DNA of 64,000 bases from positions 11,841 through 75,840 of the forward strand of contig PKYG01000023.1 in NCBI GenBank assembly GCA_003132585.1. Direction: 5' to 3'. Below are positions 30,578 to 61,313 of this stretch, piece after piece. The DNA is from Actinomycetota bacterium. Its GTDB lineage: Bacteria; Actinomycetota; Thermoleophilia; UBA2241. The translations under genes and the position numbers were made by a program. Each line of letters begins with the position of its first letter. Position 1 is the stretch's first letter. Under the pieces are notes generated by a model. It searched no databases. It was not told the DNA's origin and saw only the letters and a list, made by a program, of their open reading frames with translations.

Positions 30578-30658
30578 GTGTCGCCTCCTCCGTATGCTCC
30601 GCACCACTGCAGCGGCGGGCGACATGGGTCGCTGCGCCGGCCGTGCGGGTCCTGCGCT

Positions 30659-30764
30659 CCTTTCCGAGCACGGGGAGGCCTGAGCGTTTCCGGTCAGGCC
30701 CACGGCGACACCTGGTGAGGGTGTCGCCCCACGGTCTGTCCGTGGTACGGCCGGCCGCCCGTAG
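30659..30764 (-). promoter_or_regulatory. Copy A of a ~105-nt structured leader RNA element (sense on the minus strand, in the 5' UTR of the Mo-enzyme operon); a sigma70-like promoter lies at ~30822-30850
   Basis: Reverse complement is ~85% identical to 31017-31118. Internal hairpins carry compensatory changes between copies. On the minus strand, -35 TTGCCA and -10 TACGAT lie upstream. Confidence 0.55.
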
Positions 30765-31016
30765 CGATCTGCTGCCGTAGGGCGACGGGCTCGGAGGTGG
30801 ACACCGAGCTGACGCCTCCATCGTAGCATCGACCTCCTGCGTGGCAAGGCCGCTTGCAGGCCCATGCGGCGTCGCTGCAGGTTCACTTGACCAAAGTCAA
30901 GTTGGCGCCGCGGCGTGAGGGTGCATGGTCATCGTTGTCAGCTCCCACCTCCGGTGGTAGCGTCGTCACGCCATACAATGGCGGATTCTCCAAGCCCCGG
31001 GTCCTACGGCTCTCAG

Positions 31017-31118
31017 CTACGGACCCCGGGCCGTACCACGGACAGACCGTGGGGCGTCGCTGGTGGCGACGTCGTGGGCCCGGCCGGAAACGACCGGACC
31101 TCCCCGTGCTTGGAAAGG
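31017..31118 (+). promoter_or_regulatory. Copy B of the same leader RNA element, immediately upstream of and including the SD of the molybdate transporter gene; candidate riboswitch
   Basis: CUACGG…CCACGGACAGACCGUGG…GCGUCGCUGGUGGCGACGU…GGCCCGGCCGGAAACGACCGGACCUCCCCGUGCUUGGAAAGGAG followed by the GTG start. TACAAT at 30974-30979. Confidence 0.55.
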
Positions 31119-31130
31119 AGAGTGGTCCGC

Positions 31131-32504
31131 GTGGCGGAGCCTTGGGCTCGCGTCACCCATCGCGACGAGCCACCCGCTCGACGACGGGTCGGCGGCGGCT
31201 CGTTGGCACAGGCGATTCGCTTCAACCGCTTCGAGCTCGCCGGCAGTATCGCCGACGTCGGTCTGATGGTCCCGCTGGCGTGCGGCGTCGCCGTCGCCAG
31301 CGGGGCCAACCTGGCCGTCATCTTCGCCTGCGTGGCGGCCAGCTACGCCGCCGTCGCCCTCGCTTTCCGGGCGCCCGTGCCGGTGCAGCCCATGAAGGTC
31401 ATGGCCGCCACGGTCATCGCCCTGCGACTCTCGCCCACCGTGGTCGGGATCGCAGGCGTTGAGATCGGGCTGGTGTTCCTTGTGCTCGCGCTCACGCCCG
31501 CCATGCGCGTGCTCGCGCGCCTGTTCCCGGCCGCGGTGATTCGCGGCATCCAGCTCGCGATCGGCCTGCTGCTGATAAAGAGCGCCATCCGCATGGCCAA
31601 CACGCCCAAGGCACTGCCGGGGAGCGCCCAGGGCATCCACGTGGGGAGTGTCACCGTATGGGCCGGCGTGGTGCTCGCCGCGGTCATCGGCCTGATCATG
31701 CTGATCCACCGGGGACGCGGACGCGTGCCCCTCGGCCTGCTGGTGCTCGCCGCGGGCGCGATCGTCGGCCTCGTCGCCCTGACGCTGGGCGTGGGCCACG
31801 TGGCTTCGGTCTCGGGAGTCTCCAGGAACGCGATCGTGCACCTACCCTCCGCCGGCGACGCCTGGGTGGCTTTCGTCGTCCTCGTCCTTCCCCAGCTTCC
31901 CCTGTCGCTCGGCAACGCCGTCTACGCCACCGAGGACGCGATGCAGCACTACTACAGCGATCAGGCGGCTCGGGTCACCCCGAGGAACCTCGGGGTGAGC
32001 ATGGGGGTGATCAACCTGGTCTGCGGAGCGCTCTCGGGCATGCCTCTCTGCCACGGCTCCTCCGGTGCGACCGCCGCCTACCGCTTCGGCGGGCGCACAG
32101 CGGGAACGACGCTGCTCGCCGGGGCATTCTACGCGCTGCTGGCGGTGGCCGTGGTCTTCCATGCGTCGCCACTCCTCGTGCCCGGCGCGGTCCTAGCGGG
32201 GCTCCTGCTCTTCGTCGGCATCGAGCACAGCCTGCTGGTGGCCGACCTGCGCTCGCTCGACGCGGTGGCGAGCGCCGCCGTGATCGGCGTCGCGACCCTC
32301 CTCACCGGGAACATGACCATTGGCTTCCTGCTGGGATGGGCGTGCTATGCGGCGCTGCGGCGGACGCCGTTGCGCCGCGTGCCGGTCCGCTGGCCGCGCC
32401 TGACGGCGTGGCTGGCGCCGCGACCGCAGGTCGCGGCGGCAGGACTGGCAGCCAGCGCCACTGCCGTGGCACCGCTCGCGCCGGCGGGCGGCGAGCGTCA
32501 GTAG
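31131..32504 (+). CDS. MOT1-family molybdate transporter (MFS_MOT1 / sulfate-permease-like)
   Basis: PVQPMKVMAATVIAL and SGMPLCHGSSGATAAY match the two MOT1 signature motifs (PxQPMK, CHGxGG). ~10 TM. GTG 31131 (or 31122) with AAGGAG upstream; the ORF-track start at 30915 overlaps the leader element. Confidence 0.6.
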   Translation: MAEPWARVTHRDEPPARRRVGGGSLAQAIRFNRFELAGSIADVGLMVPLACGVAVASGANLAVIFACVAASYAAVALAFRAPVPVQPMKVMAATVIALRLSPTVVGIAGVEIGLVFLVLALTPAMRVLARLFPAAVIRGIQLAIGLLLIKSAIRMANTPKALPGSAQGIHVGSVTVWAGVVLAAVIGLIMLIHRGRGRVPLGLLVLAAGAIVGLVALTLGVGHVASVSGVSRNAIVHLPSAGDAWVAFVVLVLPQLPLSLGNAVYATEDAMQHYYSDQAARVTPRNLGVSMGVINLVCGALSGMPLCHGSSGATAAYRFGGRTAGTTLLAGAFYALLAVAVVFHASPLLVPGAVLAGLLLFVGIEHSLLVADLRSLDAVASAAVIGVATLLTGNMTIGFLLGWACYAALRRTPLRRVPVRWPRLTAWLAPRPQVAAAGLAASATAVAPLAPAGGERQ

Positions 32505-38419: not shown

Positions 38420-39700
38420 CCAGCGCACTCGCCGCGGCGTCCTTGAGGTCGCAGCCTTCAGGCGTCCATCGTCGCCAGACTCCAGCACCAGCCGGCCAGA
38501 TCGCGGGCCACGGCCACGGCGGCCACCGTGGAGCGCTTGCCGCGGGCATCGAAGGCAGCCCAGCGTCGCTGCAGGCGCCGCCCCGCGGTCTCGGCGCGCA
38601 CGCGCACCACGGCCGGCTGCCCCTCGCGGCGGCCCGCCAGCTCGCGGCTCGCACGCGAGGCCGGCCGCCGCTGCTGCCAGGCGGCCTCGACCAGCAGGCG
38701 CCGGGCGTGGCCGTTGCCGGTCTTGGTGATCGCTCCCTGGCGGCGGCGCTCACCGGAGGAGGACTCGCTGGGGGTGAGCCCCAGGTAGGCGCCGATCGAG
38801 CGCCCGTCGAAGCGCTGCCAGTCGCCGATCTCGGCGGCCAGCCCGAAGGCGGTCAGGGTGGAGACGCCACGCAGACACGAAAGGCGACCGACCGTCGCCG
38901 CCCAGGGCTGCTTGGCGGCTTCCTCGCAGATCGCCACATCGAGGGCGTCGCGGCGCGCCCGCACGCTCTCGACGGCGGCCACGGCCTCCCCGTAGGCGAG
39001 GGCCAGGCCGCGCATCTCGAAGCGCTGGCTGGCGAGCCAGCGCTCATGCGCCTGCATCCAGGCGCTGCCCTCCCAGACGAGGCCCTGGCGCAGGAGCAGC
39101 TTGGAGAGTCGGTGGCGGGCGCGCATGAGGTCGGAGCGCGCGTCCTCGCGGGCGCGCACGAGGTCACGGGCGGCTTCCTCCTCCAGGCTCGGCACGCGCA
39201 CCGCGACGAGCTCGTCGAGGCGCAGCAGCTTCGCCAGCCGGAGGGCGTCGCGGCGGTCGGTCTTGACGCGCTCGCCGGGGGCGCGGGCGATGCGCGAGGG
39301 GGCGGCCACCAGGCAGGGGATCCGCGCCGCCTCGCAGGCGCGCGCCAGGCCGAAGCCGGTGGGCCCCGCCTCGTAGGCGACGGAGACGGACTCGCCCTGG
39401 GCGCGCAGCCAGGGCAGAAGCTCGGCGGTGCGCGCCGGGGCGCTGCAGATCCTCACCTCGCCGGTACCTGCGTTGAGCATCGCGGCCGCGACCGACCGTG
39501 CGTGCACATCGAGACCGATGAACGTAAGCTCACTCATGCGGCGCCTCCCCGTAAATGCGGCTCTGCCACCACCCGGTGTGGCGGCAACCCGCGCCAACTT
39601 ACGTGGCGGGGCGCCGCGCCGCCACATACGGTCTAACATAAGAAGTGGACCAATGAATGGGGTCTGGTCAGTACGAGCTACAAACAGCCTTGGACGCCAA
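38420..39700 (-). mobile_element. IS110-family insertion sequence (boundaries approximate)
   Basis: Single transposase gene, no obvious terminal inverted repeats (typical of IS110). Sits between the IS3 remnant and the VWA gene. Confidence 0.5.
38458..39537 (-). CDS. IS110-family transposase (DEDD)
   Basis: MSELTFIGLDVHARSVAAAML…YEAGPTGFGLAR… N-terminal DEDD domain; C-terminal …GLTPSESSSGERRRQGAITKTGNGHARRLLVEAAW… Start at ATG 39537. Confidence 0.85.
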   Translation of the reverse strand: MSELTFIGLDVHARSVAAAMLNAGTGEVRICSAPARTAELLPWLRAQGESVSVAYEAGPTGFGLARACEAARIPCLVAAPSRIARAPGERVKTDRRDALRLAKLLRLDELVAVRVPSLEEEAARDLVRAREDARSDLMRARHRLSKLLLRQGLVWEGSAWMQAHERWLASQRFEMRGLALAYGEAVAAVESVRARRDALDVAICEEAAKQPWAATVGRLSCLRGVSTLTAFGLAAEIGDWQRFDGRSIGAYLGLTPSESSSGERRRQGAITKTGNGHARRLLVEAAWQQRRPASRASRELAGRREGQPAVVRVRAETAGRRLQRRWAAFDARGKRSTVAAVAVARDLAGWCWSLATMDA

Positions 39701-39717
39701 GGAGAAACCGGAACCGG

Positions 39718-42414
39718 CTACGCCGTGAGGTTGCCGTAGATGCCGGGCAGCTTGGTGGGCAGCGAGGCGACGTTCTGGATGACCGTGTACCTGGCTGCTC
39801 CGAATAGCTCCCTCAGGTAGTCGGGCCCTTCGGGGTCGACCGTGATACAGAACGTGGCCAATCCTTTGTTCCGCGCCTCGTACAGCGCCATCCTCACGTC
39901 CTCGGTGGCATACGTCATGTTCCCGTAGCCCATATCGTAAGGCCGCCCGTCACTGAGCAGTATCAGCAGCTTGTCGTGAGCCGGCTGGCGTGAGAGGCGG
40001 TCTGCGGCGTGCCGGAGAGCGGCTCCCAGGCGAGTGTAGGCGTGAGGTTCGATGGCCCCGATGCGCCGGGCCACGTTCTCGTCGAACTCGTCCTCGAAGT
40101 CCTTGATGACCCGCAGATCGACGCGATGCCGCCCCTGGCTGGTAAAGCCCAGGATGGCGTAGCGGTCATCGAGCTGCTCGACGGCTTGGGCCAGGAGAAC
40201 GAGGCCCTGTTTCTCGACGTCGATCACGCGGCGATCATCCTCGACCGGCGCCTCCGTCGAGTCGCTCATATCGAGAAGAAAGAGGACCGCGAAGTCCCGG
40301 AGCTTCTTGTCGTGACGGATGAAGACCTTGTCCGTTAGAGGAGCCCCGGCCGCGCGATCGGCCAGAGCTTCTACCAGGGCATCCAGGTCGAGCTCGTCTC
40401 CGTCCGGTTGCCGGAAATAGCGGGCAATGCGCTCGCGACGCAGGCGCTCGAACTGCCGGCGTATGAGCAGGACCTCCCCGCGGTACTGCTCGAGCGTGCG
40501 CTGGACGAAGGAGGAATCTCCCTCGGGTATCTGCCGGCACCGGACCGTACACCAGCGGATCCGGTAGTCGTTGGCCTCGTGATCCCACTCGTCATAGTGG
40601 TAGACCTCGCATTCCGGGAGAAGCTCCTCTCCGGGCTCCTGCTCGAGAATTACGAGGTCGCACCTGGAGTCCGGGAGGTCTCCGAGCGGCACCTCCCCCT
40701 CGGGCATGTCGCTCACCTGTAGAGGTTCGGTCATACCCGAATCGCTCGCATTCAAGCTCTCAATAAGACCAGCGTCATTCGGGTCCAGGCTAGGGGGAGG
40801 GCTGTACCTCTCCCCGGCGGGGACCGCCGCCGCGGCCGGCTCGTCTCCTACCCCAGTCGCCCCCGCCCCGGCCAAGGCCAAGCCGGCCGAGAAGTGGTCG
40901 TGAAAGGGCGGGTACGGCACCTCGGCAAACGCGAAGTCCCTCAGCCGGCCGTATGCAAACCATTCGGGCGCGATCAACTCGAACAGCCGCGCCGAGGCGC
41001 TGAAGGACTGCGCGGGGCTCGCGCCTTCCTCGGTGAGGGGCCGCATCACTTCCTCGATCTTCGCGAGCAGCGCCTCGTTTTCAAGTATGCGAATTCCGAA
41101 GGGAAGAACGGCGAGCTGGGCGCGGAGAGCCGGTGGGGTGACCGGCTCCCGGCGCCCAGGCCTTTGCAGGTAGTCCGCATACACCTGGCGCAGCAGTAGC
41201 TCGGCGTCCTGACGAAGCCCGGGAAGGACCTCAAAAAGCGCGGCGTCGATGCGGTAGTCCTCCGAGGCCATGAGCAGGAAACGGCGGACCGCGGCCTCCT
41301 CGGATGTCGCCCCGGGCGTATCCAGCTCGCCGGAGCCGTTCCCCAGAAGCTGTCTCACGAGCGACCGCCCCTCGAAGCTGCCGAACCGCTGGTGGGCAGC
41401 GGCATGAATGCCGGTGAGCTTGTACATTCGCGCCGGGCTGAGACCGCGGGCGCCCAGGGTGGGGCGCAGATAGAGAGTCCGGCTGTCGTTGAGGGCGGCC
41501 ACCTCGGAGGGTACCGAAGTAGGCTCGAGGAGGTCGAACATGCTTCGAACCTCCACCGGGCGCCCGAGAAAAGCTTCCAGAACTACGCTTACTCGTGGTT
41601 GAAGGGCGGAGAACGAGGTTCCTCGAGAAAAGGCCTGCACCACCTCGTGGCTCTTCTTGGAGTTGTAGGACATATAGAGCACGAGGCCCTCGTCCGGCAA
41701 GCCGGCAGCGAGGCCTTCCTCGGCCCATTCCCGGATTTGGGCGACGCTCAGCGTACCGAGAAGCGCGGGCAGCATCTGAAAGAAGCCCTTGGTGGCCTGC
41801 CGGGATCTCTCGGCTATCCGGCTGCCGATTTGGGCCAAGGCCGCCAGATCACGAGGCTGTAGCGACGGCGCGCTTTGGGCCACTGATTGCAGAAAACCGT
41901 GTGCCGCCCACCAATCAGCGCCGGCCAAGGCCACGGCCTCCGCGTGCCACGTCCGGAGGAAAGCCAGGTTTCTGCCGGCCAGGACCAGGGGCGCGTACTC
42001 CAGGAAAGTCTCGGCCAGATTTGCTTTGCTGGCTATTCTCAGAGCATAGTCCGTCACCTCGACAGCGGTTTCACGGTCCATCGAGGCCAGATAGCATAAC
42101 TGGGCCAGGTAAGCACCGGCCAGGTGCGCCGAGTGAGCCATGAAAACCCGAACGGCCTCGTGAACCGGTTCGCGCAGGTCTGGGTGCTCACTCAGGCAGG
42201 CCAGCCCTTCCAACGCCGGCAGGAGAATGCCCTCCTTGTCCCGCCAGGTCTGGGCACTGACGAGCTCGGCCAGCTCGGTCCACAAGGCCAGGTCGGGGGA
42301 CTCGAGCGCCTGAAGCTCAGCCAGGTGCCGTTCCGCGAAGGCGAGCGAGTGCCCCCCCAGGCCGCTGAGCAGCGAAGGCAGGAGCCGGGACCCACTTGTC
42401 GGAAGGTCGCTCAC
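39718..42414 (-). CDS. Large VWA-domain protein, CbbO/NorD/CoxE-like partner of the MoxR-type ATPase
   Basis: ~600-aa helical N-region plus C-terminal VWA: [18 protein letters not shown]…[12 protein letters not shown]… (MIDAS). The start overlaps the upstream stop (ATGA). Confidence 0.75.
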
Positions 42415-43244
42415 CCCGCAAATACGGTCTCAACCAGCTCGTCCATTGTGGCCAGCATCTCCTCGTCGTCACTGAGCGGGCGCGTGACCGCCACCCGGAC
42501 AGCTGAGCGCGGGGTAAGCCCGCGTTGAATCAGCCGGCCGGCGTTGACCAGAAGGCGAGTCGAAGCCCCCTCTTCCAAGCCGTGGTCCTTCAAATTCCTC
42601 AGCTGGTGGGCCAGCTCGACGAGCTGCACCGACATCTTCTCGGGAACGTCTGTCTCCGAGCGGACTATCTCCGCCTCGAGCTCCCTCTCCGGGTAGTCGA
42701 ACTCGAGAGCGACAAAACGCTGGCGCGTCGAGGGCTTCAGATCCTTGAGAATGCTCTGATAGCCCGGGTTGAAGGAGATGACGAGCACGAAGTCCTCGTG
42801 CGCGGAAAGGAAGCTTCCCCGCTTCTCCAGGGGCAGAATGCGCCTATCGTCCGCCAGAGGATGGATGATGACGATAGTGTCTTTCCTCGCTTCGACAAAC
42901 TCGTCCAGGTAGCAAACCGCCCCCCGCCTGACCGCCGTGGTCAGCGGCCCGTCCATCCAGACGGTTTCCCCGCCGACGAAGAGGTAGCGCCCGACCAGGT
43001 CCGAGGCGGTTAGATCTTCGTGGCAGGCAACGGTTATGAGGGGCAAGCTCAACCGATGAGCCATATACTCGAGAAAACGGGTCTTCCCGCTGCCCGTAGG
43101 CCCCTTGAGCATGACAGGGAGCTTCAGGGCATGAGCCTTCTCGAAGAGCTCTACCTCCTCCCCAAGGGGTCGGTAGAAGGGCTCCCGGATGATTCGGTAG
43201 TCCTCGAGGCTCCCGTCTCTTCCGTATTCCGTCGCCTCTCGCAT
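42411..43244 (-). CDS. CbbQ/NorQ/NirQ-family (MoxR-class) AAA+ ATPase
   Basis: [48 protein letters not shown]…[13 protein letters not shown]… (Walker A/B, CbbQ-type N-terminus). Confidence 0.85.
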
Positions 43245-43349
43245 TTGCGCTCATCACTCCTACGGGTCGAACAGCATGCGCCCTGAGTAGCCCAATGGTG
43301 CTCCTGTGGGTGTCCCGGCGTGGTGGTGTTCCGCCGCGGGTCCTGGGTG

Positions 43350-44162
43350 TCAGTGGTGATGAGCCCCGGAGTGTCCTGCCGCTCCCGCAACCTGGTGAGC
43401 CGGTGGCTCTTCCGCAAACGCGCCATCGTAGTCTGAGCCCACAACCTCCGCCTCGCCGATCACCAGGCGCGCAACATTAGGCCAGCCTTCCGGGTCGGCA
43501 CCGCCTGCCCCGTAGCCGACCGCCTCCGACCTCAGAGCGGGCAAGACGGCCACCTGCCGGCCCAACGCCGTCACCAGGGCGGCGCCCGTGGGTGTGGTCA
43601 GCTCGCGCCGCGGCCCCCGCGCGTGGAATGTCCAGCCGGTCAACAAGCGCAAGGTGGCCGGGGCCGGCACAGGGAGGAGGCCATGAGCACAGCGCACGGT
43701 TCCACTGCCGACGTTTACCGAACCGACCAGCAGCTGGCGCACCTCCAGGCTATGGAGCCCGAAGACGGTTCCGGCGATGTCCGCCAGCGCGTCGGCCGCG
43801 CCCACCTCGTGGAAGTGCACCTGGCGAGGATCCACGCCGTGCACCGCCGCCTCGGCCTCGGCGAGGCGCAGAAAGACGGCGATTGCGCGGCTCTTCACCT
43901 CGTCGGGTAGGGCGCTCGCCTCCAACAGACCGACGATGTCCGCGAGATGACGGTGCTCACGCTGCTCGGGGTAGGTGACCTTGACGCTCGTGGCGCCGAT
44001 TCCATTCCTCCGCTCGCTGTCGGCCTTTACCTCCAAGCCCTCCACCCCGAGGCAGTCTAGGGCACCCTGAAGATCCGTTAAGGCAAGGCCAGCATCGATC
44101 AGAGCCCCGAGGAACATGTCGCCGCTTATGCCGCTGAAGGGGTCCAGCCAACCTATCCTCAT
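43350..44162 (-). CDS. larC: Nickel-pincer nucleotide cofactor Ni-insertion protein, N-terminal (LarC1/DUF111) part only; the CTP-binding LarC2 domain is absent
   Basis: MRIGWLDPFSGISGDMFLGALIDAGL… typical LarC start; His-rich C-terminal tail (HSGAHHH). 270 aa, versus ~420 aa for full LarC. Confidence 0.7.
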   Translation of the reverse strand: MRIGWLDPFSGISGDMFLGALIDAGLALTDLQGALDCLGVEGLEVKADSERRNGIGATSVKVTYPEQREHRHLADIVGLLEASALPDEVKSRAIAVFLRLAEAEAAVHGVDPRQVHFHEVGAADALADIAGTVFGLHSLEVRQLLVGSVNVGSGTVRCAHGLLPVPAPATLRLLTGWTFHARGPRRELTTPTGAALVTALGRQVAVLPALRSEAVGYGAGGADPEGWPNVARLVIGEAEVVGSDYDGAFAEEPPAHQVAGAAGHSGAHHH

Positions 44163-44250
44163 GAGACCATGTCTCCCATCCTCACGCCGCTGGCTACCAT
44201 GCTGCTGGTTCCGTGGCCAATGGGGTGCGAGAACGCATAAAAGCGCCGCT

Positions 44251-45069
44251 CTAAGCGCCCGTATCGACCATGCTGTCCAGCTCCTTCTCGAAGGGTCCTT
44301 GCTGGGCGCGTGCCCCCCTCACCGCCATCTGGTTGATCATATTGGCCTGGTAGCCGGCGCCGAAGCCGTTGTCGATGTTCACCACCGACAGGCCCGGGGA
44401 GCAAGAGTTGAGCATCGAGAGCAGCGCGGCGATGCCCTCCAGGTGGATCCCGTAGCCCACGCTAGTCGGCAGGCCGATTACCGGGCAGCTGACGAGACCG
44501 CCGATGACGCTGGCCAGGGCGCCCTCCATGCCCGCCACGGCGACAATGGCGTTGGCTTGCCCAAGCACCTCGCTCTTGCTCAGCAGCCGGTGGATCCCTG
44601 CTACGCCGATGTCGTAGAGCCGCTCGACTCGACTGCCGGAGGCCTCGGCGGTCAAGGCCGCCTCTTCGGCAACCGGGATATCAGACGTTCCGCCCGTGGC
44701 GACACAGACCAGACCGACGAGCGGAAGCTCGGCAGGGTTGAGCACGGCAAGTGATGCTTCCCGGTGGATCCGGTGTGGTAGTTCGCTCGCCGCAAGCGCA
44801 TCGAGCACCTCGGGCCGCGCCCGCGTGGCCAGCACATTCGTGTGCCCGTAGGCAACCATCCGCCGGGCGATCTCCACTACCTGCTCCACAGTCTTGCCGG
44901 CGCAGTAGATCGCTTCTCCGTAGCCCCGCCGGAGAGTGCGGTCGTGATCTATATGGGCAAAGCCCAGCTCCTCACCAGGCAGCCTGGTTAGCTGGCGGAG
45001 TGCCCCTTCGAGACCGATCCGCCCCTCCCGGACACCCTCGAGCAGGCAGCGAAGCTTCTCGGCGTTCAT
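44251..45069 (-). CDS. larB: Pyridinium-3,5-biscarboxylic acid mononucleotide synthase (PurE-like), NPN cofactor biosynthesis
   Basis: …GLVCVATGGTSDIPVAEEAAL…VAGMEGALASVIGGL… PurE-like fold with LarB-type N-extension. ATG 45069 overlaps the larE stop (ATGA). Confidence 0.8.
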   Translation of the reverse strand: MNAEKLRCLLEGVREGRIGLEGALRQLTRLPGEELGFAHIDHDRTLRRGYGEAIYCAGKTVEQVVEIARRMVAYGHTNVLATRARPEVLDALAASELPHRIHREASLAVLNPAELPLVGLVCVATGGTSDIPVAEEAALTAEASGSRVERLYDIGVAGIHRLLSKSEVLGQANAIVAVAGMEGALASVIGGLVSCPVIGLPTSVGYGIHLEGIAALLSMLNSCSPGLSVVNIDNGFGAGYQANMINQMAVRGARAQQGPFEKELDSMVDTGA

Positions 45070-45914
45070 TGGAGCACACTCGGCAGCCCCGCCTGGGGAA
45101 CCTCGTTCATGCTGCCTGTCCGGTAGCCTTCGAGGTCGAAGGCGGCATAGACGAAGCCAGCCTCCTTGATGACGGCAACGACCGCCTCGGCCACCTCGAG
45201 GAGGTGGGCGAAGTCCGCGGGCAGCACCTCGAGCCGGGCGACCTCGCCATGGTAGCGAAGGCGCAGCTGTGAAAAACCGAGGTCCCTCAGCCTTTCCTCC
45301 GCCCGCCCGACCCGCGCGACGCGCTCCCGAGTGATAGCTGTCCCATACGGAAACCGGGAGGAGAGACAAGCAGACGAGGACTTGTTCCAGGTGGGGAGCT
45401 TCAACCACCTGGAGAGCTGCCGGATGTCCTGCTTGGTCAGCCCGGCCTCACGCAGCGGGCTGCGCACCCCGCGCTCCAGGGCCGCCTGCTTGCCCGGCCG
45501 GTGATCTCCCTCGTCATCCAGGTTGGACCCGTCCAGCACCCAGGGCAGCCCCTCTTGGGCGGCCGTCTGGGCCAGCCGCCGGAAGAGCTCCTTCTTGCAG
45601 AAGTAGCAGCGGTTCCGGGGGTTCTCCCGGAATTCGGGTAGATCGAGCTCCTCGGAGATGATGAAGCGGTGGTGCACGCCGAGCTGCTCGGCGACGGCGG
45701 CGGCGCCCTCCGCCTCCCGTCGTGGATAGGTCTCGGAAAGAGCGGTGACCGCGAGCACACGTTCGGCCAGCGCCTCCCTGGCAGCCGCCACGAGGAAGGT
45801 GGAGTCAACCCCACCGGAGAAAGCAACGACAACCCCTTCTAAGGGCCTCAGTAGCTGCTGCAGACTCTCCCACTTCACCGCATCCGCTTCTGATATCGGG
45901 TTCAGTAAGACCAC
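45066..45914 (-). CDS. larE: ATP-dependent sacrificial sulfur transferase (PP-loop ATPase), NPN cofactor biosynthesis
   Basis: VVAFSGGVDSTFLVAAARE (PP-loop SGGxDS)…CYFCKKELF…CLSSRFPYGT. Confidence 0.85.
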   Translation of the reverse strand: MVLLNPISEADAVKWESLQQLLRPLEGVVVAFSGGVDSTFLVAAAREALAERVLAVTALSETYPRREAEGAAAVAEQLGVHHRFIISEELDLPEFRENPRNRCYFCKKELFRRLAQTAAQEGLPWVLDGSNLDDEGDHRPGKQAALERGVRSPLREAGLTKQDIRQLSRWLKLPTWNKSSSACLSSRFPYGTAITRERVARVGRAEERLRDLGFSQLRLRYHGEVARLEVLPADFAHLLEVAEAVVAVIKEAGFVYAAFDLEGYRTGSMNEVPQAGLPSVLQ

Positions 45915-46036
45915 AAGAGACCCCTGACTTTTTGCATACTACAGTTCACAGCGCAAAGAAGGTACTGATGGACTGCAAGGACCAGAGAAACCCTGGTCCT
46001 TGCTGACCATCACCGAGACGGACAGGGCAGAACTAA

Positions 46037-47119
46037 TTACCTGCCTGGATGCGTCATATGCTTTGTGGCCGCCGCGGCAGCCGCCCTGGTCTTCTCGACG
46101 TCGATCGGCTTGAGCCCGATCATCTCCCGATAATCGTTTCCGGTTGCTACCTTTCGGCCCATCAGCTCCGCCATCGTCTTGAAGGCCAGGAACGTCTCCG
46201 CATTGTCTTCGATACGGTCGTCCTTATGGGGCCACTTGAAGACACTGTCTTCTTTGCCTACGCGAATGTGCAAACCGAGGCAAAGAGCTAGGGTAGCCAG
46301 ATAGCTCGAGGCACGACCAGCCGCACAGACGGCGATGATGGCCTCATCGTCGATGTCCTTGATTGCTCCCACCAGATGCATGAGGCCGTACACCATCTGC
46401 CGCGGGTTCTGCATCGGACTCCCACCAGGCAAGGTCGGGAGAATCAGGAAGAAATAGGGCTTCTCAAGCAGACCTGTCTTAATCAGGTAGCGGTCAGCGT
46501 TGTCGATGTCGCCGTCGCTGTAAACCGCTATCTGGCACTTGACCCCGCGCTCCTGACAAATCCTGGTTTTCTCGATCATCACGTGAGGCGGCTTTGCGAA
46601 CAACGTGTCCCCGCAATAGGTGGCCGTGGTGTTTATCGGTGTAACCTCGAGGTGACCAGCGTCCAGCAATTGTATCATCTTATCCCACTCGCCCGTCTGC
46701 ATGGGCACCACGCAACCGTCGTACACGACCTCCGGGAACTTCTCTCTCAAAGGAGGCAAGTACCGGTTGTACATCGACGGGTCTAGCACATTGTAGCCGT
46801 TCTCATCCCGAAAATGGATATGGACCGTAGGCGCGCCCGCGCTTGCGCATGCCTCAGCGGAAGCCATGATCTCTTCAGGCAGCACGTGATGAAAGGGGTT
46901 AGTGCGAGGGCTATAGAACGCGCCGGTGATCGCGGATGATATCACGACCTTATCCGGGATATCCCACGGGGGCTGCACGACAACATCGCCATACAAGCTG
47001 GTTATCGGGTCCGTGACCTCGGGAAGCCCGTACGGCTTCCAGATGGCCATGAATTCCTCTTTCTTCTTATACTCCTCGATCAGCTCCCAGTTCACTCTAT
47101 CCTTGGTCATCGTCTTCAA
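46037..47119 (-). CDS. BKACE-family (DUF849, 3-keto-5-aminohexanoate cleavage enzyme-like) TIM-barrel enzyme; GC lower than flanks
   Basis: …SAITGAFYSPRTNPFHHV…APTVHIHFRDENGYNVLDP… matches BKACE hallmarks. Confidence 0.65.
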   Translation of the reverse strand: MKTMTKDRVNWELIEEYKKKEEFMAIWKPYGLPEVTDPITSLYGDVVVQPPWDIPDKVVISSAITGAFYSPRTNPFHHVLPEEIMASAEACASAGAPTVHIHFRDENGYNVLDPSMYNRYLPPLREKFPEVVYDGCVVPMQTGEWDKMIQLLDAGHLEVTPINTTATYCGDTLFAKPPHVMIEKTRICQERGVKCQIAVYSDGDIDNADRYLIKTGLLEKPYFFLILPTLPGGSPMQNPRQMVYGLMHLVGAIKDIDDEAIIAVCAAGRASSYLATLALCLGLHIRVGKEDSVFKWPHKDDRIEDNAETFLAFKTMAELMGRKVATGNDYREMIGLKPIDVEKTRAAAAAATKHMTHPGR

Positions 47120-47226
47120 CCTCCTCTATTGAGCGGCCAGACACGGCCACTGCAACTAAAGGGCGCGACGATGGCTGGCGTGGTGCCGGCCAAGCCGGCC
47201 TCCATCGCGCCCTCCGCTTACAGGGG

Positions 47227-48717
47227 CTACTTCACAGTTCTCTTCTTCTCCGGCTCCGGCATGCTCTTCTCAGAATGAGCGTAGTTGTCCAAAGATGCCT
47301 CGACCCAGTCGGTGGGCTTGTTGGCCGCCATCTCGTCCGCGCCGTAGTAGACGGTGCAGCCGTCCACGAAGGCCTTCATGTCCTGCCTCTGCTCGCGGCG
47401 CGCGATGGCGTCCTCCAGCTTTGCCTGATCGGTCACGTCCGGGATGCACCAGAGGTTCGACATATCGGCCAGGAGCACGTCCGGCGCCTCATAAACAGTG
47501 CCGGCCGCCTCGGCCTCATGGTGATAGCACACGGTATAACCGTAGCCGGGACAGTTCGAGATCTTGACAACCGACTTGGCTTTGTTGACCTTGTCCATGA
47601 AGCCCTCCAGCTGGTGGCTGGGCGAGGACGCGCATTTCCCGATCAACCACACCTCGTCATAGTCGCTCAGGTCCTCGCCAATCATGGCCCTCGCCCCCAC
47701 GATAAGCGCGTACTTCTTGTCGGGCCCCACGAAGGGGGGCAGAGTGTTGAGGGCCCACCAGCAGCCCTGGCAAGCGCCGCCGTAGAACTCCTTGACGTTC
47801 GGCCATCTGCTGATGTACTGGCCGAAAGGCCTCTTGAAGGGGAAGAGGGCCTCGCTAATGGGCGTGCCGAGAACATCTATCTCGTCCAGATCGCCCGTGC
47901 CGAGGCCATCCTTGTGGGCCATTTGCGTGGCCGGGATCTCCAGAGGATGCATGCCCATGACCGCACAGGAGACGGCGTCAAAAGCCACGACGTCCGAGGA
48001 GGCGATGATCACACCGGGATTCACCACCAGGCCCGCGTGCGGGCCGGAGCCCTCCATGCCGTACACGCCGTCGAGCACGTTGAGCTTGAGCTTGGCGCCC
48101 AGAACCTTGGCCACGTCGGTGCAGGCCGCGCCCATGTCCATCTTGTTCTTGTGGAAGAAGGTGCGGTGGCTGTTGTGGAACGCCCCGACCCAGGACTTCA
48201 ATCCCAGCGTGGCCGTTTGCACCAGGTTGCACTTCATCTTCGGGACGTTGATGACCACGTCGGCCTCGACCAGAGACTTGGGGAGGCGGATCTTCCCGAA
48301 CGCCCGGCCGTTCGGTACATCGTATTCCGGAAAGTCGTCGTTCTCCCAGTTGACTACCTCGTCTGCGCCCCCTCTTTCGGCGGCTTCCTTCAGGCCGGTC
48401 ACCCTCCAAGCCAGCTCAGGATCGCAGTGCCAGCCGGTCTGCTCCCCGACCTTTACGTAAGCACCCGTTTCCTTTGCCACTCGCACGACAGCTTCCAGGA
48501 CAGCGGGGTGGGTCGTCTCCGCCTCGTCCGGATGGGACGCATAAATCAGGTTGGGCTTGATCATGACCACGTCGCCCTTTCCACAGAACTGCGCCATCCC
48601 GCCCAGCAGATCTATGGCTTCGCGTACCGCTTTCTCCGCGTCAACGTATTCCTTTGCCTTAGTGATCGCGACCTTGCTCTTAGTCTGTAGAGCTGGTCTC
48701 TCGACGATTCTACGCAT
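47227..48717 (-). CDS. DUF362-family protein (function unknown); candidate client enzyme of the Lar system
   Basis: …LLGGMAQFCGKGDVVMIKPNLIYASHPDEAETTHPAVLEAVV… (DUF362 signature IKPN). Confidence 0.6.
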   Translation of the reverse strand: MRRIVERPALQTKSKVAITKAKEYVDAEKAVREAIDLLGGMAQFCGKGDVVMIKPNLIYASHPDEAETTHPAVLEAVVRVAKETGAYVKVGEQTGWHCDPELAWRVTGLKEAAERGGADEVVNWENDDFPEYDVPNGRAFGKIRLPKSLVEADVVINVPKMKCNLVQTATLGLKSWVGAFHNSHRTFFHKNKMDMGAACTDVAKVLGAKLKLNVLDGVYGMEGSGPHAGLVVNPGVIIASSDVVAFDAVSCAVMGMHPLEIPATQMAHKDGLGTGDLDEIDVLGTPISEALFPFKRPFGQYISRWPNVKEFYGGACQGCWWALNTLPPFVGPDKKYALIVGARAMIGEDLSDYDEVWLIGKCASSPSHQLEGFMDKVNKAKSVVKISNCPGYGYTVCYHHEAEAAGTVYEAPDVLLADMSNLWCIPDVTDQAKLEDAIARREQRQDMKAFVDGCTVYYGADEMAANKPTDWVEASLDNYAHSEKSMPEPEKKRTVK

Positions 48718-48840
48718 GCTCGTTCCCCTCTCTTGTCATTTGCTGACGGACGGCTGACTCTGGCGTCCCGCTAGCTGGTTGTTAGGGCAATCCCCCCTTT
48801 CCCGTCCGCGGCGCGGCGGACGGTCCTATGCGACGAGGTC

Positions 48841-49395
48841 CTATTCCGCCGCGGCGGATTTGTCACGGACTATCCTGGGGAAGGTGATGGTCACGTTGAA
48901 CCATCCGAGGAACGCCCCGATGTACCCCGCCACCAGCACCCAGAGGAAGCTAACCCACGGCTGGGCGTAAATGCTGTGCGTGGCCGGATAGCTGGCCGTG
49001 AAGTAGACGCCCAGCGACAAGGACACTCCATTGAAGACCGCAAGCGATCCGTCCCACAAGAACTTGCTGTACCTCAAGAGGTACACGAGAATTCCCATCC
49101 ACACGGCCAGCGAGATGTACAGCGCCATGTTCTTCGGGAGATGCGGCGCCAGAAGCACGGTCATGTACAAGGACAGTGCCGTCAGGACCGCACCATACGC
49201 GTAACAAGGGATTATGATTCGAAGGGCGCTCGCCTTGGCACCAAAAGTGAAGTACTCGGCCCACACGATGAACGATGCCCAGAGCGGGATGTTGTATCTA
49301 CCCAAGTACAGGCTCAGCGGGAGGGCGACCACGATCGTAATTGAAACAGCTAGCCAGAGGGGGATGGTTTCCTTCGTTGTTGTGGGAGTTACCAT
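48841..49395 (-). CDS. Integral membrane protein (5-6 TM), first gene of the lar-containing operon
   Basis: 184 aa, highly hydrophobic, no family assigned (possibly transporter S-component-like). Confidence 0.5.
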   Translation of the reverse strand: MVTPTTTKETIPLWLAVSITIVVALPLSLYLGRYNIPLWASFIVWAEYFTFGAKASALRIIIPCYAYGAVLTALSLYMTVLLAPHLPKNMALYISLAVWMGILVYLLRYSKFLWDGSLAVFNGVSLSLGVYFTASYPATHSIYAQPWVSFLWVLVAGYIGAFLGWFNVTITFPRIVRDKSAAAE

Positions 49396-49699
49396 TGTGA
49401 GAGTGCACCTCCAAATTGCCTACGATGTTTCCTCGATGGGTGACAGCACGACGGAAGCTGATATCCTGCTCATTGCTTTCTCTCCGTTGCCGCTCCTCCC
49501 AGTAAGTAATTCGTATTCCCACACTCAGCTGCTTGGTTCTCTCCTTTCTTTGACGTGGTTATTTGTTCTCATGTCGGGTGTGCAGGTTGCGATCTCATGG
49601 TAGAAACCAGTCTTGCGCAGACCACAGCCCCATCCAGTACCCAGACATCTCCGCCTCGAGTGTTGAAGTTGCCGACCTGCCGCTTTAGCGTTGCTCTAC

Positions 49700-49730
49700 A
49701 AGTACTAACATTATAGGAGGCACTTTACCA
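49700..49730 (-). promoter_or_regulatory. Putative sigma70-type promoter (-10 TATAAT) for the minus-strand lar-containing operon, giving a ~300-nt leader
   Basis: Minus-strand sequence …cctcctataatgttagtac… within an AT-richer 850-bp divergent intergenic region. Confidence 0.3.
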
Positions 49731-50243
49731 GTTTACATAAAAGGCCGGCCTATGTCACCAGTGATTCTGAGGTTTCTCCTTCCTCATCTCCTCGGTTTCC
49801 CCGCCGCGAAGAACCAGACCCCAGCTACGCTTCCATTCGCACTCTACGTGAACCCCCTTGGGAGTCCGGTGCACGTTGGGGTCCGACCGGGGAGAGACGC
49901 TGCTATCTGTCAAACGGCCTTCTTGTTGACGCTCGTTTCCGTCACTTGGCCGAGGCTCCTCGCGCAGTCGTCTTTCGCCTAGCCGTTGCTTTGGACTGAC
50001 CAAACAACTGAATTCAAGCACACGCCATATGAAAGTGCAATAGTGATTGATGTTTCCTCTCGGACACTGTCCAACCGCCGTCTTACCCTTGCAATTGCAG
50101 CCAAACTTCGGCAGCAATGGCGGTTAGCCGGATGGCGACCGGGTTGACTCTTGCGCCGGGGCGCTCAGGGTGTTTCAATGCGTCCAGGCCACTGGACTGA
50201 CCGATGGTTGCAGTGGATCGACCATAGGAGAGAAGGGAAGTAG

Positions 50244-58301: not shown

Positions 58302-61300
58302 CTACACCGCCAGCGCCTCTCCCCTGATCTGCTCGTACACCTGCTTGAGCAGGTGCCGGCTAACCGCCCCGCGGAACTCCTTGTCGTCGAGGAACTTGGC
58401 AGTGATCGCCTCGTTCTGGTCCATGCGATCGATGAACAGTCCCTCCAGCGCCTTGTCGAAGACGAGCTTGAACGCCTCGATCTCGTTGGCGACGGCCGCT
58501 TGCTGCAGCTTTTCGTCGGCGATCGCCTCCTCGCGGATTTGACTGAAGAAGAGCTCGTCGGCTTCAGTGAACGACGTGCCGAACCGCTCATTGATGATCT
58601 CGATGAGCTTCGAGAGCTCGACCTTCTCGTCCTCGACCAGGCCGGTGCCGACCTCGGTCGGTCCATCGACCACGCCGCCTGCGCCCTTGGTCAGCTCAAT
58701 CTGCCCCTCACTGATCTTCTGCAAGCGGTAGTACTTGAGCGCGACCTCGTCGTCGAAGTGATACTGCGGGCCGGTCCCTCGCCGCGGCAGCTTGGGGATG
58801 AGGAAGCGCACGAACGTGTAGAGCTTCTCTAAGTCCGTGTCGCCGTAGGGAATCACCTGTGAGAGGAAGGCATAGAGATTGCGGAAGGCAACGAGCTTGC
58901 CGCGGAACTCCTCGCACTCCTCCTCCCCGTGTTCGCCGGCACGGCGCTCGACAAACCGCTGCACGGCCTTGTCGAGCCAGGCGTTGAGCTTGGCGTGGTC
59001 GGCGGGCGTCTGCTCGCTCTTCGGCTGGAAGAACACGCTGCAGAAGCCCTCGACCTCGTCGAGGTAGTAGATCTGGGCGTCGTTCAGCTCGGTCTGCAGC
59101 GCGTAGAGCTGCTCCGGTGTGGCCTGCTCGCCGACGGCGGTGACCTCGTAATAGGGCTGGAACGAGCGCAAGATCTCCTCGCGCTCGTTGACGAAGTCCA
59201 GGACGAAGGTGTCCTCCTTACCGGGGGCGGTGCGGTTAAGCCGGGAGAGCGTCTGCACTGCCTGCACGCCGGAGAGGCGCTTGTCGACGTACATCGTGTG
59301 CAACAGCGGCTGGTCGAAGCCGGTCTGGTACTTCTCGGCGACAAGCAGGAGCTGGTAGTCGTCGCCGGCGAACTTCTCCGGCAGCGCCCTCTCCTTGATG
59401 CCGAGGTTCATGCCTACCTCGGTGTAGGCCTTGCTGGGCAGGTTGGGGTCGAACACCTCGCCTGAGAAGGCGACGAGCGTCTTGATGTCTGAGTAGCCCT
59501 TCTCTGCGATCTGCCGGTCGAACTCCTGCTTGTAGCGCACGGCGTGGAGCCGCGAGCTCGTCACCACCATCGCCTTGGCCCGACCGCCGATCTTGTGCCT
59601 AGTGTGCTGGCGAAAATGCTCGAGCATCACCTCGGTCTTCTGCGCGATGTTGTGAGGGTGCAGGCTCATGAAACGCGCCAGCGCCTTGGCCGCCTTCTTC
59701 TTTTCGACCTCGGGGTCGTCTTCGGCCGACTTGATCAGCCCGTAGTAGGTCTTGTAGGTCGTGTACTGGGCAAGCACGTCTAAGATGAAGCCCTCCTCGA
59801 TCGCCTGGCGCATGCTGTAGAGGTGGAAGGGCACAGGCTTGCCGTCGACGCCGGGACGCCCGAAGACTTCGAGCGTCTTGTACTTCGGTGTCGCCGTGAA
59901 GCCGAAGAAGCTCAGGTTGGGCTGACGGCCGCGGGCGGCCATCGCCCTGATGACCTCCTCCTGGTAGTCATCGAGGCCATCGTCGGCGGCCTCCTCGGCC
60001 GCTTGCTCGGCGAGGTGCGCTCCGGCGAGCACTGTCTTCATCGTGGCGGCGCTCTCGCCACTCTGCGAGCTGTGCGCCTCATCGACGATCACGGCGTAGC
60101 GGCGCTTGGCGAGCTCGCCGATCTTCTCGGTGACGAAGGGGAACTTCTGCAGCGTCGTGATGATGATCGCGGTGCCAGCCTCGAGCGCCTCGGCGAGCTG
60201 GGTCGAGTTCTCGTCGATCTTTTCCACCACGCCCTGCTTGTGTTCGAACTGGTAGATCGTGTCCTGGAGCTGCTTGTCGAGGACGCGGCGGTCGGTGACC
60301 ACGACGACGCTGTCGAATACCTTCTCGTCGTCGACTGAGTGCAGGCTCGCCAGGCGATGCGCGAGCCAGGCGATCGAGTTGCTCTTGCCGCTGCCCGCCG
60401 AGTGCTGGATCAGGTAGTTCTCACCGGCGCCCTTAGCGCGGGCGTCGGCCTCCGCTTTGCGCACGCAGTCGAGCTGGTGGTAGCGCGGGAAGATCATCGT
60501 TTCACGACGTACCGTCTTGCCGCCGAGCTTCTTCTCATCGACCTGCAGATGGAGGAAGCGCGCGAGGATGTCCATCAGGCTGTCGCGCGCCAGCACCTGC
60601 TCCCACAGGTAAGCCGTCTTGTAGCCGTCGGGGTTCACGGGGTTGCCGGCGGCCGTGCCGTCGCCCTTGTTGAAGGGCAGGAAGCTGGTCCCTTTCAGGG
60701 CCAGCTTCGTCGCCGTGTAGACCTCGTCGGGGTCGATGGCGAAGTGCACCAGCGTGCGCAGCTTGAAGCGGAAGATCGTTTCGCCGGGGTCGCGGTCGCT
60801 CTTGTACTGCCACACAGCGTCGCGCCAGGTCTGGCCGCTTATCGGGTTCTTGAGCTCGGCGGTAACGATCGTCAGACCGTTGAGGCTCAGGACGAGGTCA
60901 ATCGAGTTCTCGTTGGCGAGGCTGTACTTGAGCTGGCGCGTGACCGTGAGGCGGTTCGACTCGTAGAGCGCCTGCGTCTCGGGGTTCATGCCGTGAGCGG
61001 GGGCGAAGTAGGCGAGGTGGAGCTGCTTGCCGTAGCATTTGAAACCGTGACGGAGCACGTCGAGGGAACCGCGCGCCGCGAGAGCGCCAAGAAGGTTGTC
61101 GAGGACGGTGGCCTCGGTCTGCTCGCCGAGGAGCGCCTCGAGCTTGGCCCACGTCTTGGGCTGCGAGGCACGCAGGAAGTTGAACAACTCGCCGCGGTCG
61201 AGGGCAAGCTCACGGTCGAAGTCTGCGGGATTGCCTTTGAGGTAGCCGCCACGGGTGAGCAGGCTCTCTTCGATGGCGATCTCGAAGGCAATCTCCTTGT

Positions 61301-61313
61301 GGTCGACCGGCAT
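58302..61313 (-). CDS. hsdR: Type I restriction endonuclease R subunit
   Basis: N-terminal HsdR_N (MPVDHKEIAFEIAIEESLL…), SF2 helicase motifs (…VVTDRRVLDKQ…, …VIVDEAHSSQSG…), C-terminal helical domain; 1003 aa. Confidence 0.9.
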   Translation of the reverse strand: MPVDHKEIAFEIAIEESLLTRGGYLKGNPADFDRELALDRGELFNFLRASQPKTWAKLEALLGEQTEATVLDNLLGALAARGSLDVLRHGFKCYGKQLHLAYFAPAHGMNPETQALYESNRLTVTRQLKYSLANENSIDLVLSLNGLTIVTAELKNPISGQTWRDAVWQYKSDRDPGETIFRFKLRTLVHFAIDPDEVYTATKLALKGTSFLPFNKGDGTAAGNPVNPDGYKTAYLWEQVLARDSLMDILARFLHLQVDEKKLGGKTVRRETMIFPRYHQLDCVRKAEADARAKGAGENYLIQHSAGSGKSNSIAWLAHRLASLHSVDDEKVFDSVVVVTDRRVLDKQLQDTIYQFEHKQGVVEKIDENSTQLAEALEAGTAIIITTLQKFPFVTEKIGELAKRRYAVIVDEAHSSQSGESAATMKTVLAGAHLAEQAAEEAADDGLDDYQEEVIRAMAARGRQPNLSFFGFTATPKYKTLEVFGRPGVDGKPVPFHLYSMRQAIEEGFILDVLAQYTTYKTYYGLIKSAEDDPEVEKKKAAKALARFMSLHPHNIAQKTEVMLEHFRQHTRHKIGGRAKAMVVTSSRLHAVRYKQEFDRQIAEKGYSDIKTLVAFSGEVFDPNLPSKAYTEVGMNLGIKERALPEKFAGDDYQLLLVAEKYQTGFDQPLLHTMYVDKRLSGVQAVQTLSRLNRTAPGKEDTFVLDFVNEREEILRSFQPYYEVTAVGEQATPEQLYALQTELNDAQIYYLDEVEGFCSVFFQPKSEQTPADHAKLNAWLDKAVQRFVERRAGEHGEEECEEFRGKLVAFRNLYAFLSQVIPYGDTDLEKLYTFVRFLIPKLPRRGTGPQYHFDDEVALKYYRLQKISEGQIELTKGAGGVVDGPTEVGTGLVEDEKVELSKLIEIINERFGTSFTEADELFFSQIREEAIADEKLQQAAVANEIEAFKLVFDKALEGLFIDRMDQNEAITAKFLDDKEFRGAVSRHLLKQVYEQIRGEALAV

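Follow-up and report, generated by a model that had tools for sequence, protein, structure and literature searches.

Which enzyme uses the cofactor nickel-pincer nucleotide (NPN) when the genes for its biosynthesis stand without a gene for the lactate racemase LarA? About 15% of genomes have larB, larE and larC and no larA (PMC11796402), and the question is raised by an eight-gene unit at 39718-49395 in a 64,000-nucleotide stretch of contig PKYG01000023.1 from an Actinomycetota bacterium, which was analyzed in full and is called the window below. All eight genes lie on the minus strand and encode, in order, a DUF1097 inner-membrane protein, a DUF362 protein, a beta-keto acid cleavage enzyme (BKACE), LarE, LarB, LarC, a CbbQ/NorQ-type AAA+ ATPase and a NorD-like von Willebrand factor A (VWA) protein. 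Pfam or NCBIfam matches were obtained for all of them and bear out the identities and order assigned earlier from the letters of the DNA (the sequence-only reading). Our reading, to which we give slightly better than even credence, is that these genes form one transcription unit for a non-canonical NPN enzyme system in which LarB, LarE and a LarC1-only LarC make the cofactor, the DUF362 protein is the client and the AAA+/VWA pair is its chaperone. From computed gene identities, fold, residue alignment and neighborhood statistics we infer cofactor binding, a reaction and a chaperone target.

The DUF362 protein (496 residues; 47227-48717) is probably a new user of the nickel-pincer cofactor. Its sole Pfam match is PF04015 (E = 2e-44), which scores 152.5 bits against a gathering cut-off of 24 and covers positions 1-199 of the 200-position model. 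Unlike LarA, the protein lies outside DUF2088/Lar_N and gives no detectable match to LarA profiles. A hmmsearch of the window with a LarA profile found no match, and Lar_N does not appear among the best 25 of 50 Pfam families for the other 40 open reading frames (ORFs) of the window. The earlier statement that the window holds no LarA homolog is therefore right for the canonical, DUF2088-type LarA but overlooks the DUF362 protein itself, a distant LarA relative that shares Pfam clan CL0471 with the LarA N-terminal domain. The LarA field has treated DUF362 as an outgroup only (PMC11770544). An AlphaFold model computed with 52 homologues has a mean confidence (pLDDT) of 95.7, and the 18 best structural matches returned by Foldseek are all LarA-family chains. 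As modeled, the DUF362 protein of the window has the three-dimensional fold of LarA. A link between the two families from sequence alone had been sought and failed; fold and HMM-HMM comparison were required.

Two independent hhalign runs aligned DUF362 with LarA in an identical register at E = 0.096 and 0.019. Because the sequence alignment is weak, residue equivalence rests on motif register and fold. The catalytic histidine of L. plantarum LarA (GFH108; Protein Data Bank (PDB) entry 5HUQ) aligns with H97 (GWH97), and in the same weak alignment the lysine that tethers the cofactor (GGRK184) aligns with K174 (GLK174) and the nickel-ligand histidine (NH200) with H189 (FH189). K174 and H189 are invariant across 52 DUF362 sequences, and the alignment and fold together would bring K174, H189 and H97 into one pocket. 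The second catalytic histidine of LarA (IESH174) is replaced by Asn164 (PKMKCN164). Proven cofactor-binding LarA enzymes of "group 17" have asparagine at this position (PMC12611868), and the exchange is present in NPN-loaded LarA structures. The group 17 enzymes (LarA_Bw and LarA_Sp; PDB 9Q3J and 9Q3K) share the single catalytic histidine with the window protein but are DUF2088 proteins that assemble as octamers and for which a function in carbohydrate metabolism has been proposed; the four-cysteine site and the BKACE and AAA+/VWA partners are lacking in them. The sequence-only reading had named the DUF362 protein as the best candidate client, and the LarA fold, the aligned Lys174, His189 and His97 and the recurrent adjacency to larB/E/C without LarA (see below) agree with that choice, albeit at a weak hhalign E. 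A Lar-linked DUF362 sub-clade (loci L033, L036, L037, L042, L043 and L044, mostly from Chloroflexi-type metagenome-assembled genomes (MAGs)) has alanine at the position of the tether lysine, so any cofactor binding there would be non-covalent.

The window protein also has four cysteines (C316, C319, C362 and C389), conserved in 33 of 34 members of its subfamily (clades A and B, defined below), which probably hold an Fe-S cluster or zinc. DUF362 as a whole is large, with 7,097 clusters at 50% identity matching the window protein at E <= 1e-3. The window protein's own subfamily is rare, with about three full-length clusters at 50% identity matching across the whole protein. A tblastn search against plasmids gave only four remote matches and was uninformative. 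The only NCBIfam match is Npun_F2552 (E = 5e-32, below the cut-off), a family that takes its name from a cyanobacterial gene; larB, larC and larE without larA have been reported for cyanobacteria (PMC11796402).

The association of DUF362 with lar genes was surveyed at 80 genomic DUF362 loci and further metagenomic loci (L numbers), whose ORFs were searched with the window proteins; linkage was counted when lar genes lay within 10 kb on the same strand. Three clades were distinguished. Clade A, which contains the window protein and carries the motif QTGWH...PKMKTN, has lar genes nearby in 3 of 13 loci (the window, L004 and L008). Clade B, from Acetobacterium, Erysipelothrix, Christensenellales, Chloroflexi and others, carries NPSLGMHVGR...PKMKVH and is linked in 12 of 29. 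Clade C, the typical ferredoxin-fused DUF362 with the motif PKLKTH, is linked in none of 48. No lar biosynthesis gene was found in 52 control loci anchored on VWA relatives, and a LarA-profile search found no canonical LarA in any Lar-positive locus. The linked taxa include Acetobacterium and Erysipelothrix and MAGs labeled Christensenellales, Chloroflexi/Chloroflexota, Anaerolineae, Thermotaleaceae, Firmicutes and "delta proteobacterium". Linkage between DUF362 and lar genes is thus seen independently in taxa and gene settings that are unrelated to one another, in both clade A and clade B, and the co-occurrence in other genomes that the sequence-only reading had proposed to survey exists.

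The order at L036 is MIP channel, DUF362, LplA-like protein, short-chain dehydrogenase/reductase (SDR), LarE, LarB and LarC, and we take its arrangement of channel, DUF362 and lar genes to resemble the classical larA...larD operon. In clade B more generally (L036, 8721-16075; L038, 322-5546; L019, 8669-12535; L032, 9977-18992), DUF362 is followed by a gene with the lipoyl-ligase fold (LplA/LplB-like), an SDR and then larE/B/C; in some loci a further gene, for a ketoacyl synthase or for an AMP-binding plus carrier protein, stands before larE/B/C. In clade A, the window gene for DUF1097 has an orthologue in L004 (5e-34).

Are the cofactor genes themselves sound? LarE (282 residues; 45066-45914), the ATP-dependent sulfur insertase, matches TIGR00268 at 323 bits (cut-off 150). 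The SGGVDS PP-loop is present, and the protein's cysteines number just three, C103, C106 and C183, in the CXXC-C arrangement defined for the catalytic [4Fe-4S]-type LarE of Thermotoga (PMC9283937). LarB (272 residues; 44251-45069), the nicotinic acid adenine dinucleotide (NaAD) carboxylase/hydrolase, covers the full NF033503 model (268.1 bits, cut-off 175). LarC (270 residues; 43350-44162) matches PF01969 (E = 9.5e-83) and TIGR00299 (199.6 bits, cut-off 90); of the 375 positions in the PF01969 Ni_insertion model it spans 2-238. Alignments with full-length LarC proteins by blastp stop at about residue 240, and the protein ends in a His-rich tail (...GHSGAHHH). A tblastn search with four LarC2 domains found no match in the 64-kb window, so the earlier description of this protein as the LarC1 part stands. 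The window set resembles L. plantarum larA-larBCDE in that LarB, LarE and LarC1 genes are clustered with a LarA-fold enzyme in which the lysine, the nickel-ligand histidine and one catalytic histidine align. It differs from that system in that its LarC has no LarC2, its LarE is of the [4Fe-4S] and not the sacrificial type, and AAA+/VWA and BKACE genes are added.

The missing LarC2 domain bears on the form of the cofactor. According to a LarC structure paper of 2026, LarC2 CMPylates the substrate and LarC1 inserts the nickel, with P2TAD mimicking the intermediate (PMC13510736). For a LarC1-only protein the possibilities are that LarC2 is encoded elsewhere, that the substrate is activated by another route, or that a dinucleotide is metallated to give an adenine-dinucleotide cofactor. 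In the last case the system would metallate a dinucleotide that retains AMP and form the cofactor NPAD, as in ornithine cyclodeaminases, whose use of the adenine-dinucleotide form is cited, from Desguin 2025, in PMC13524815. LarC1-only genes recur in four loci and would suit such a route. LarB scores like a standard equivalog (268 bits), with no sign of a lost hydrolase step, and LarC2 may simply lie outside the 64-kb window. We rate the dinucleotide variant as rather improbable; it is compatible with a DUF362 client.

Ornithine cyclodeaminase also bears on the range of possible clients, as does NphT, an aldo-keto-reductase-fold enzyme that uses the nickel-pincer cofactor (PMC13524815). The statement in the sequence-only reading that the characterized NPN clients are all of the LarA family is out of date. 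NphT and ornithine cyclodeaminase were found beside larB/E/C in clusters without LarA, like the DUF362 protein of the window, and are a precedent for cofactor use beyond LarA. Their folds (a TIM barrel in NphT, the OCD fold in the cyclodeaminase) are unrelated to LarA, whereas DUF362 is a sister family of LarA.

What does the AAA+/VWA pair do? The MoxR-class ATPase (277 residues; 42411-43244; AAA_5 and CbbQ_C) matches the CsoCbbQ structure 5C3C at E = 2e-100 and NorQ (9QHD) at 2e-94, and has the Walker A motif GPTGSGKT. The VWA protein (898 residues; 39718-42414) has a VWA Pfam match; its residues 597-897 (also given as 607-896) match NorD (E = 8e-48), and a MIDAS motif is present (D715xS717xS719). 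The ATPase closeness, the NorD-like C terminus with MIDAS and the coupled gene pair are shared with NorQ/NorD, which inserts FeB into nitric oxide reductase, and with CbbQ/CbbO, the Rubisco activase. The pair differs from both in that the N-terminal ~600 residues of its VWA protein are specific to a small family of their own (16 full-length homologues, some from Thermoleophilia), and that in other loci it occurs with LarA, cobW and URO-D-family genes. Of the 50 Pfam families matched by the 40 remaining window ORFs, the best 25 include no nor or Rubisco family; no dedicated search was added. The N-terminal region contains two invariant motifs, HxxxH (H337 and H341; residues 337-341) and P-Y-P-P-F-H-D-H (residues 500-507), which may form a metal-binding site.

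The sequence-only reading proposed that the pair may replace or extend LarC2. In that explanation LarC1, CbbQ and the VWA protein would together form an ATP-driven nickel insertase, comparable with the Mg/Co chelatases BchI/D/H and CobS/T/N or with NorQD, in place of the CTP-dependent LarC2; NorQD and CobST are described as metal-insertion motors. Both clade-A loci with a LarC1-only gene have an AAA+/VWA pair, with the gene order larC1-cbbQ-vwa (window) or larC1-M42-moxR-vwa (L004). The only clade-A locus with a full-length LarC, L008, has none. Genes for cobW metallochaperones come after orthologous pairs. Across the survey, the association of LarC1-only genes with AAA+/VWA (2 of 4, versus 0 of about 11) is marginal, and the LarC1-only loci L019 and L090 have no AAA+/VWA genes nearby. 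Loci L004, L006 and L013 have a MoxR (AAA_3) and CoxE-like VWA pair with BKACE-DUF362. These pairs are mutually orthologous (52-69% and 35-63% identity) and only 22-31% identical to the window pair, and in L006 and L013 there is no lar gene within 10 kb. The occurrence of MoxR/VWA beside BKACE-DUF362 without lar genes implies that the chaperone tracks the enzyme module and probably does not replace LarC2. Judged from these neighborhoods, two different chaperone lineages are recruited to the BKACE-DUF362 enzyme module. A gene for an M42-family peptidase lies directly upstream of MoxR/VWA in L004 (15259-16353) and L006 (12003-13058), the two being 70% identical, and is not found in the window or L013.

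Wherever upstream sequence exists, in L097/L099 and L100, orthologues of the window pair itself have a canonical larA directly upstream of them. The LarA proteins there retain all lactate-racemase residues, and a gene for a GlcD-Fe-S dehydrogenase precedes larA. L134 has a more distant AAA+/VWA pair near LarA and a GlcD-Fe-S gene. In L097, L099, L100 and L134 the pair thus adjoins LarA and not LarC. The orthologues form a conserved module, cbbQ-vwa-cobW-x172-cobW'-URO-D-family gene, where x172 is a 172-residue protein (L097, 4600-15578; also L099, L100, L098/L104, L101, L103, L105, L108, L113 and L120); a literature search found no paper that describes it. No CobN/BchH-like substrate subunit, the large third component of class I ATP-dependent chelatases, is encoded in the operon, and none is among the best 25 of the 50 Pfam families matched by the remaining 40 ORFs, again with no dedicated search. 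The most constant partners of the orthologues are cobW and the URO-D-family gene and not LarC. Replacement of LarC2 is doubtful, and of the earlier proposal for this pair only its tie to the system is retained, through the MoxR/VWA genes of L004, L006 and L013 and the orthologues that adjoin LarA in L097/L099 and L100. A role in maturing or repairing the LarA-fold enzyme is favored.

What reaction would the client catalyze? BKACE (357 residues; 46037-47110; PF05853, E = 7e-44, 150.6 bits) matches the Kce structure 2Y7D at E = 4e-25, and its HIH and KED align with HLH and FED of Kce, the zinc/catalytic HxH and ED motifs. As in the window, an orthologous BKACE adjoins DUF362 in L004, L006 and L013; the BKACE of L010 is more distant. 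Because a TIM-barrel NPN enzyme, NphT, is now known (PMC13524815) and the BKACE gene lies within the operon, BKACE, itself a TIM barrel, could be proposed as the nickel-pincer client instead of DUF362. It retains the zinc/catalytic motifs of Kce and is unrelated to LarA, and BKACE is present neither in the Lar-positive L008 nor anywhere in clade B; this assignment is highly improbable. The DUF362 protein, which we prefer as client, has a redox context. In P0105 (1003 residues), a natural fusion, a clade-A DUF362 with 53% identity over the full length is joined to an NAD(P)H/FAD/Fe-S reductase module (Fer4_20 and Pyr_redox_2). At L008, L012 and L096 the DUF362 gene is flanked by ferredoxin and reductase genes, and these loci sit in anaerobic catabolic clusters with thiolase/DUF35, aldehyde ferredoxin oxidoreductase (AFOR), old-yellow-enzyme and CoA-transferase genes. 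The four conserved cysteines, the FAD/Fe-S reductase fusion and the ferredoxin neighbors suggest that the DUF362 protein is a net oxidoreductase and, unlike LarA, not a racemase. In lysine fermentation and carnitine degradation, Kce and other BKACE enzymes are paired with a beta-hydroxyacid dehydrogenase. These systems resemble the window in the conserved catalytic motifs and in having an oxidoreductase-like partner as a possible source of the beta-keto acid; they differ in that this partner is an NAD-dependent dehydrogenase and not a LarA-fold DUF362.

The proposed mechanism starts with LarB, [4Fe-4S]-type LarE and LarC1-only LarC, which would build the nickel-pincer cofactor. The DUF362 protein would bind it through the tether lysine K174 and the nickel ligand H189 and act with one catalytic histidine, H97, with asparagine in place of the second. 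It would abstract or deliver a hydride at a hydroxy or keto acid, with electrons passing through the four-cysteine site, and the resulting beta-keto acid would then be cleaved by BKACE with acetyl-CoA. DUF1097 (184 residues; 48841-49395; PF06496, E = 3.6e-9; about six hydrophobic segments in the translation) is a candidate transporter for the pathway and probably carries substrate or product across the membrane. The CbbQ/NorD-type pair would act on the LarA-fold enzyme, either loading cofactor or metal or reopening an inactivated site, as NorQD and CbbQO do with their clients.

Is the operon one functional unit? The larE and larB genes overlap by ATGA and cbbQ and vwa by GTGA, both read directly in the sequence, and by the form of these overlaps each pair is translationally coupled. 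The remaining gaps are 88-123 nt, with 105 nt between larC and cbbQ. The earlier description of the spacing as short gaps or ATGA overlaps fits larE/larB, but the second overlap is GTGA and the rest is looser. A consensus scan brackets the eight genes with a single promoter-like and terminator-like pair: a weak consensus match at 49730-49758 on the minus strand (GTGACA, 17-nt spacer, TAAACT), followed by a leader of ~335 nt, and a hairpin at 39688-39702, minus strand, directly after the VWA stop codon, likewise a consensus match only. All eight genes recur on several metagenome contigs from the same organism. An Rfam search of the 335-nt leader and the 850-nt intergenic region gave no riboswitch match, even at E <= 1. 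Downstream the operon is bounded by an IS110-family transposase gene (38458-39639, minus strand; DEDD_Tnp_IS110/Transposase_20; GC 74-76%), and an rve fragment and an integrase gene also lie there. The GC content is 63-67% in the lar-cbbQ-vwa block, 57% in BKACE, 61-63% in DUF362 and ~54-60% in DUF1097.

Composition and flanks raise the alternative that the operon is a mosaic and the DUF362 protein a bystander. In this explanation larE-larB-larC1-cbbQ-vwa serves a canonical LarA or another client elsewhere, for example of the URO-D family, DUF1097-DUF362-BKACE was inserted upstream by horizontal transfer, and DUF362 does not use NPN. Several observations weigh against a DUF362 client, and some of them favor such a mosaic. 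The GC content steps from ~65% to 57% at ~46.0 kb, the larE/BKACE boundary, which together with the flanking IS elements suggests that the operon is a recent join of two halves. Elsewhere the CbbQ/VWA orthologues occur with canonical LarA and cobW/URO-D and not with DUF362; their most constant partners (at least 10 loci) are cobW, x172 and the URO-D-family gene, all three absent from the window, and IS110 occupies the position where the orthologous loci (L097-L105) have cobW-x172-cobW'-URO-D. The native client of the pair may therefore be something else. Ten of the 13 clade-A loci lack lar genes within 10 kb; the survey took DUF362 as its anchor and so carries an ascertainment bias, and the SDR between DUF362 and the lar genes in clade B could be the client there. 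The DUF362-LarA alignment is statistically weak (hhalign E 0.019-0.096), and a hmmsearch of the PDB with a DUF362 profile reached no LarA. K174 and H189 are also invariant in 18 distant DUF362 proteins of alignment A1, including typical ferredoxin-fused members, and given this invariance in lar-unlinked proteins the two residues may serve another function.

The independent recurrence of DUF362-lar linkage in unrelated taxa with no LarA nearby outweighs the mosaic signs. The LarA fold and aligned lysine and histidine residues of DUF362, the different AAA+/VWA lineage found with BKACE-DUF362 in three other taxa, and the placement of eight genes on one strand between a single promoter-like and terminator-like pair also argue against a bystander, which we consider unlikely. 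The DUF362 protein as NPN client remains the preferred reading.

Two non-LarA users of the nickel-pincer cofactor are all that have been found so far, in 2025 and 2026. Literature searches found no paper that links DUF362, or MoxR/NorQ/CbbQ/CobW/VWA systems, to the nickel-pincer cofactor, lar genes or lactate racemase. We tentatively propose, with less confidence than we attach to the reading of the operon itself, that DUF362 proteins, or at least those of the two Lar-linked clades, are a second, so far unrecognized branch of nickel-pincer enzymes that combine the pincer with an Fe-S electron-transfer site, catalyze net redox reactions and depend on dedicated MoxR-class AAA+/VWA chaperones. 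Nickel insertion might then follow a LarC1-only, CTP-independent route, or the cofactor might be a dinucleotide. If the proposal holds, a cofactor would be assigned to DUF362, a large and long-standing domain of unknown function, pincer chemistry would extend to the ferredoxin-linked redox reactions of anaerobic catabolism, and the window pair would be the first accessory ATPase that matures or repairs a pincer enzyme. Every gene needed for a direct heterologous test is present in the operon.

The genes around the operon had been taken as a hint of lactate or another hydroxy acid as substrate. The adjacent LUD-domain genes (lutC, lutB/A-like) and the GntR/FCD and FAD_binding_4 genes are present as described. 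They occur only on contigs of this organism (L001-L003) and at no other DUF362 locus, and lactate was rejected as the substrate; the only outside echo of the lut/glcD context is the GlcD-Fe-S genes beside LarA in L097 and L134. An 850-nt gap (49396-50243) parts the operon from the divergent lutC-like gene, and its sole ORF, of 120 residues, has no Pfam match. Farther away, two molybdenum-cofactor riboswitches (RF01055, 48 and 58 bits) lie back to back at 30657-30796 (minus strand) and 30976-31136 (plus strand), in the space between divergent genes, a molybdopterin oxidoreductase gene and MoeA-like genes among them. An ORF for a SWI2/SNF2-type ATPase (58305-61343, minus strand) lies in the segment from 58305 to the window end at 64000, and its counterpart in the source contig has HsdR-type Pfam domains; an N-6 DNA methylase match was also obtained among the window ORFs in the Pfam scan. 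Positions 1-28000 are occupied by a large polysaccharide biosynthesis cluster with several glycosyltransferases.

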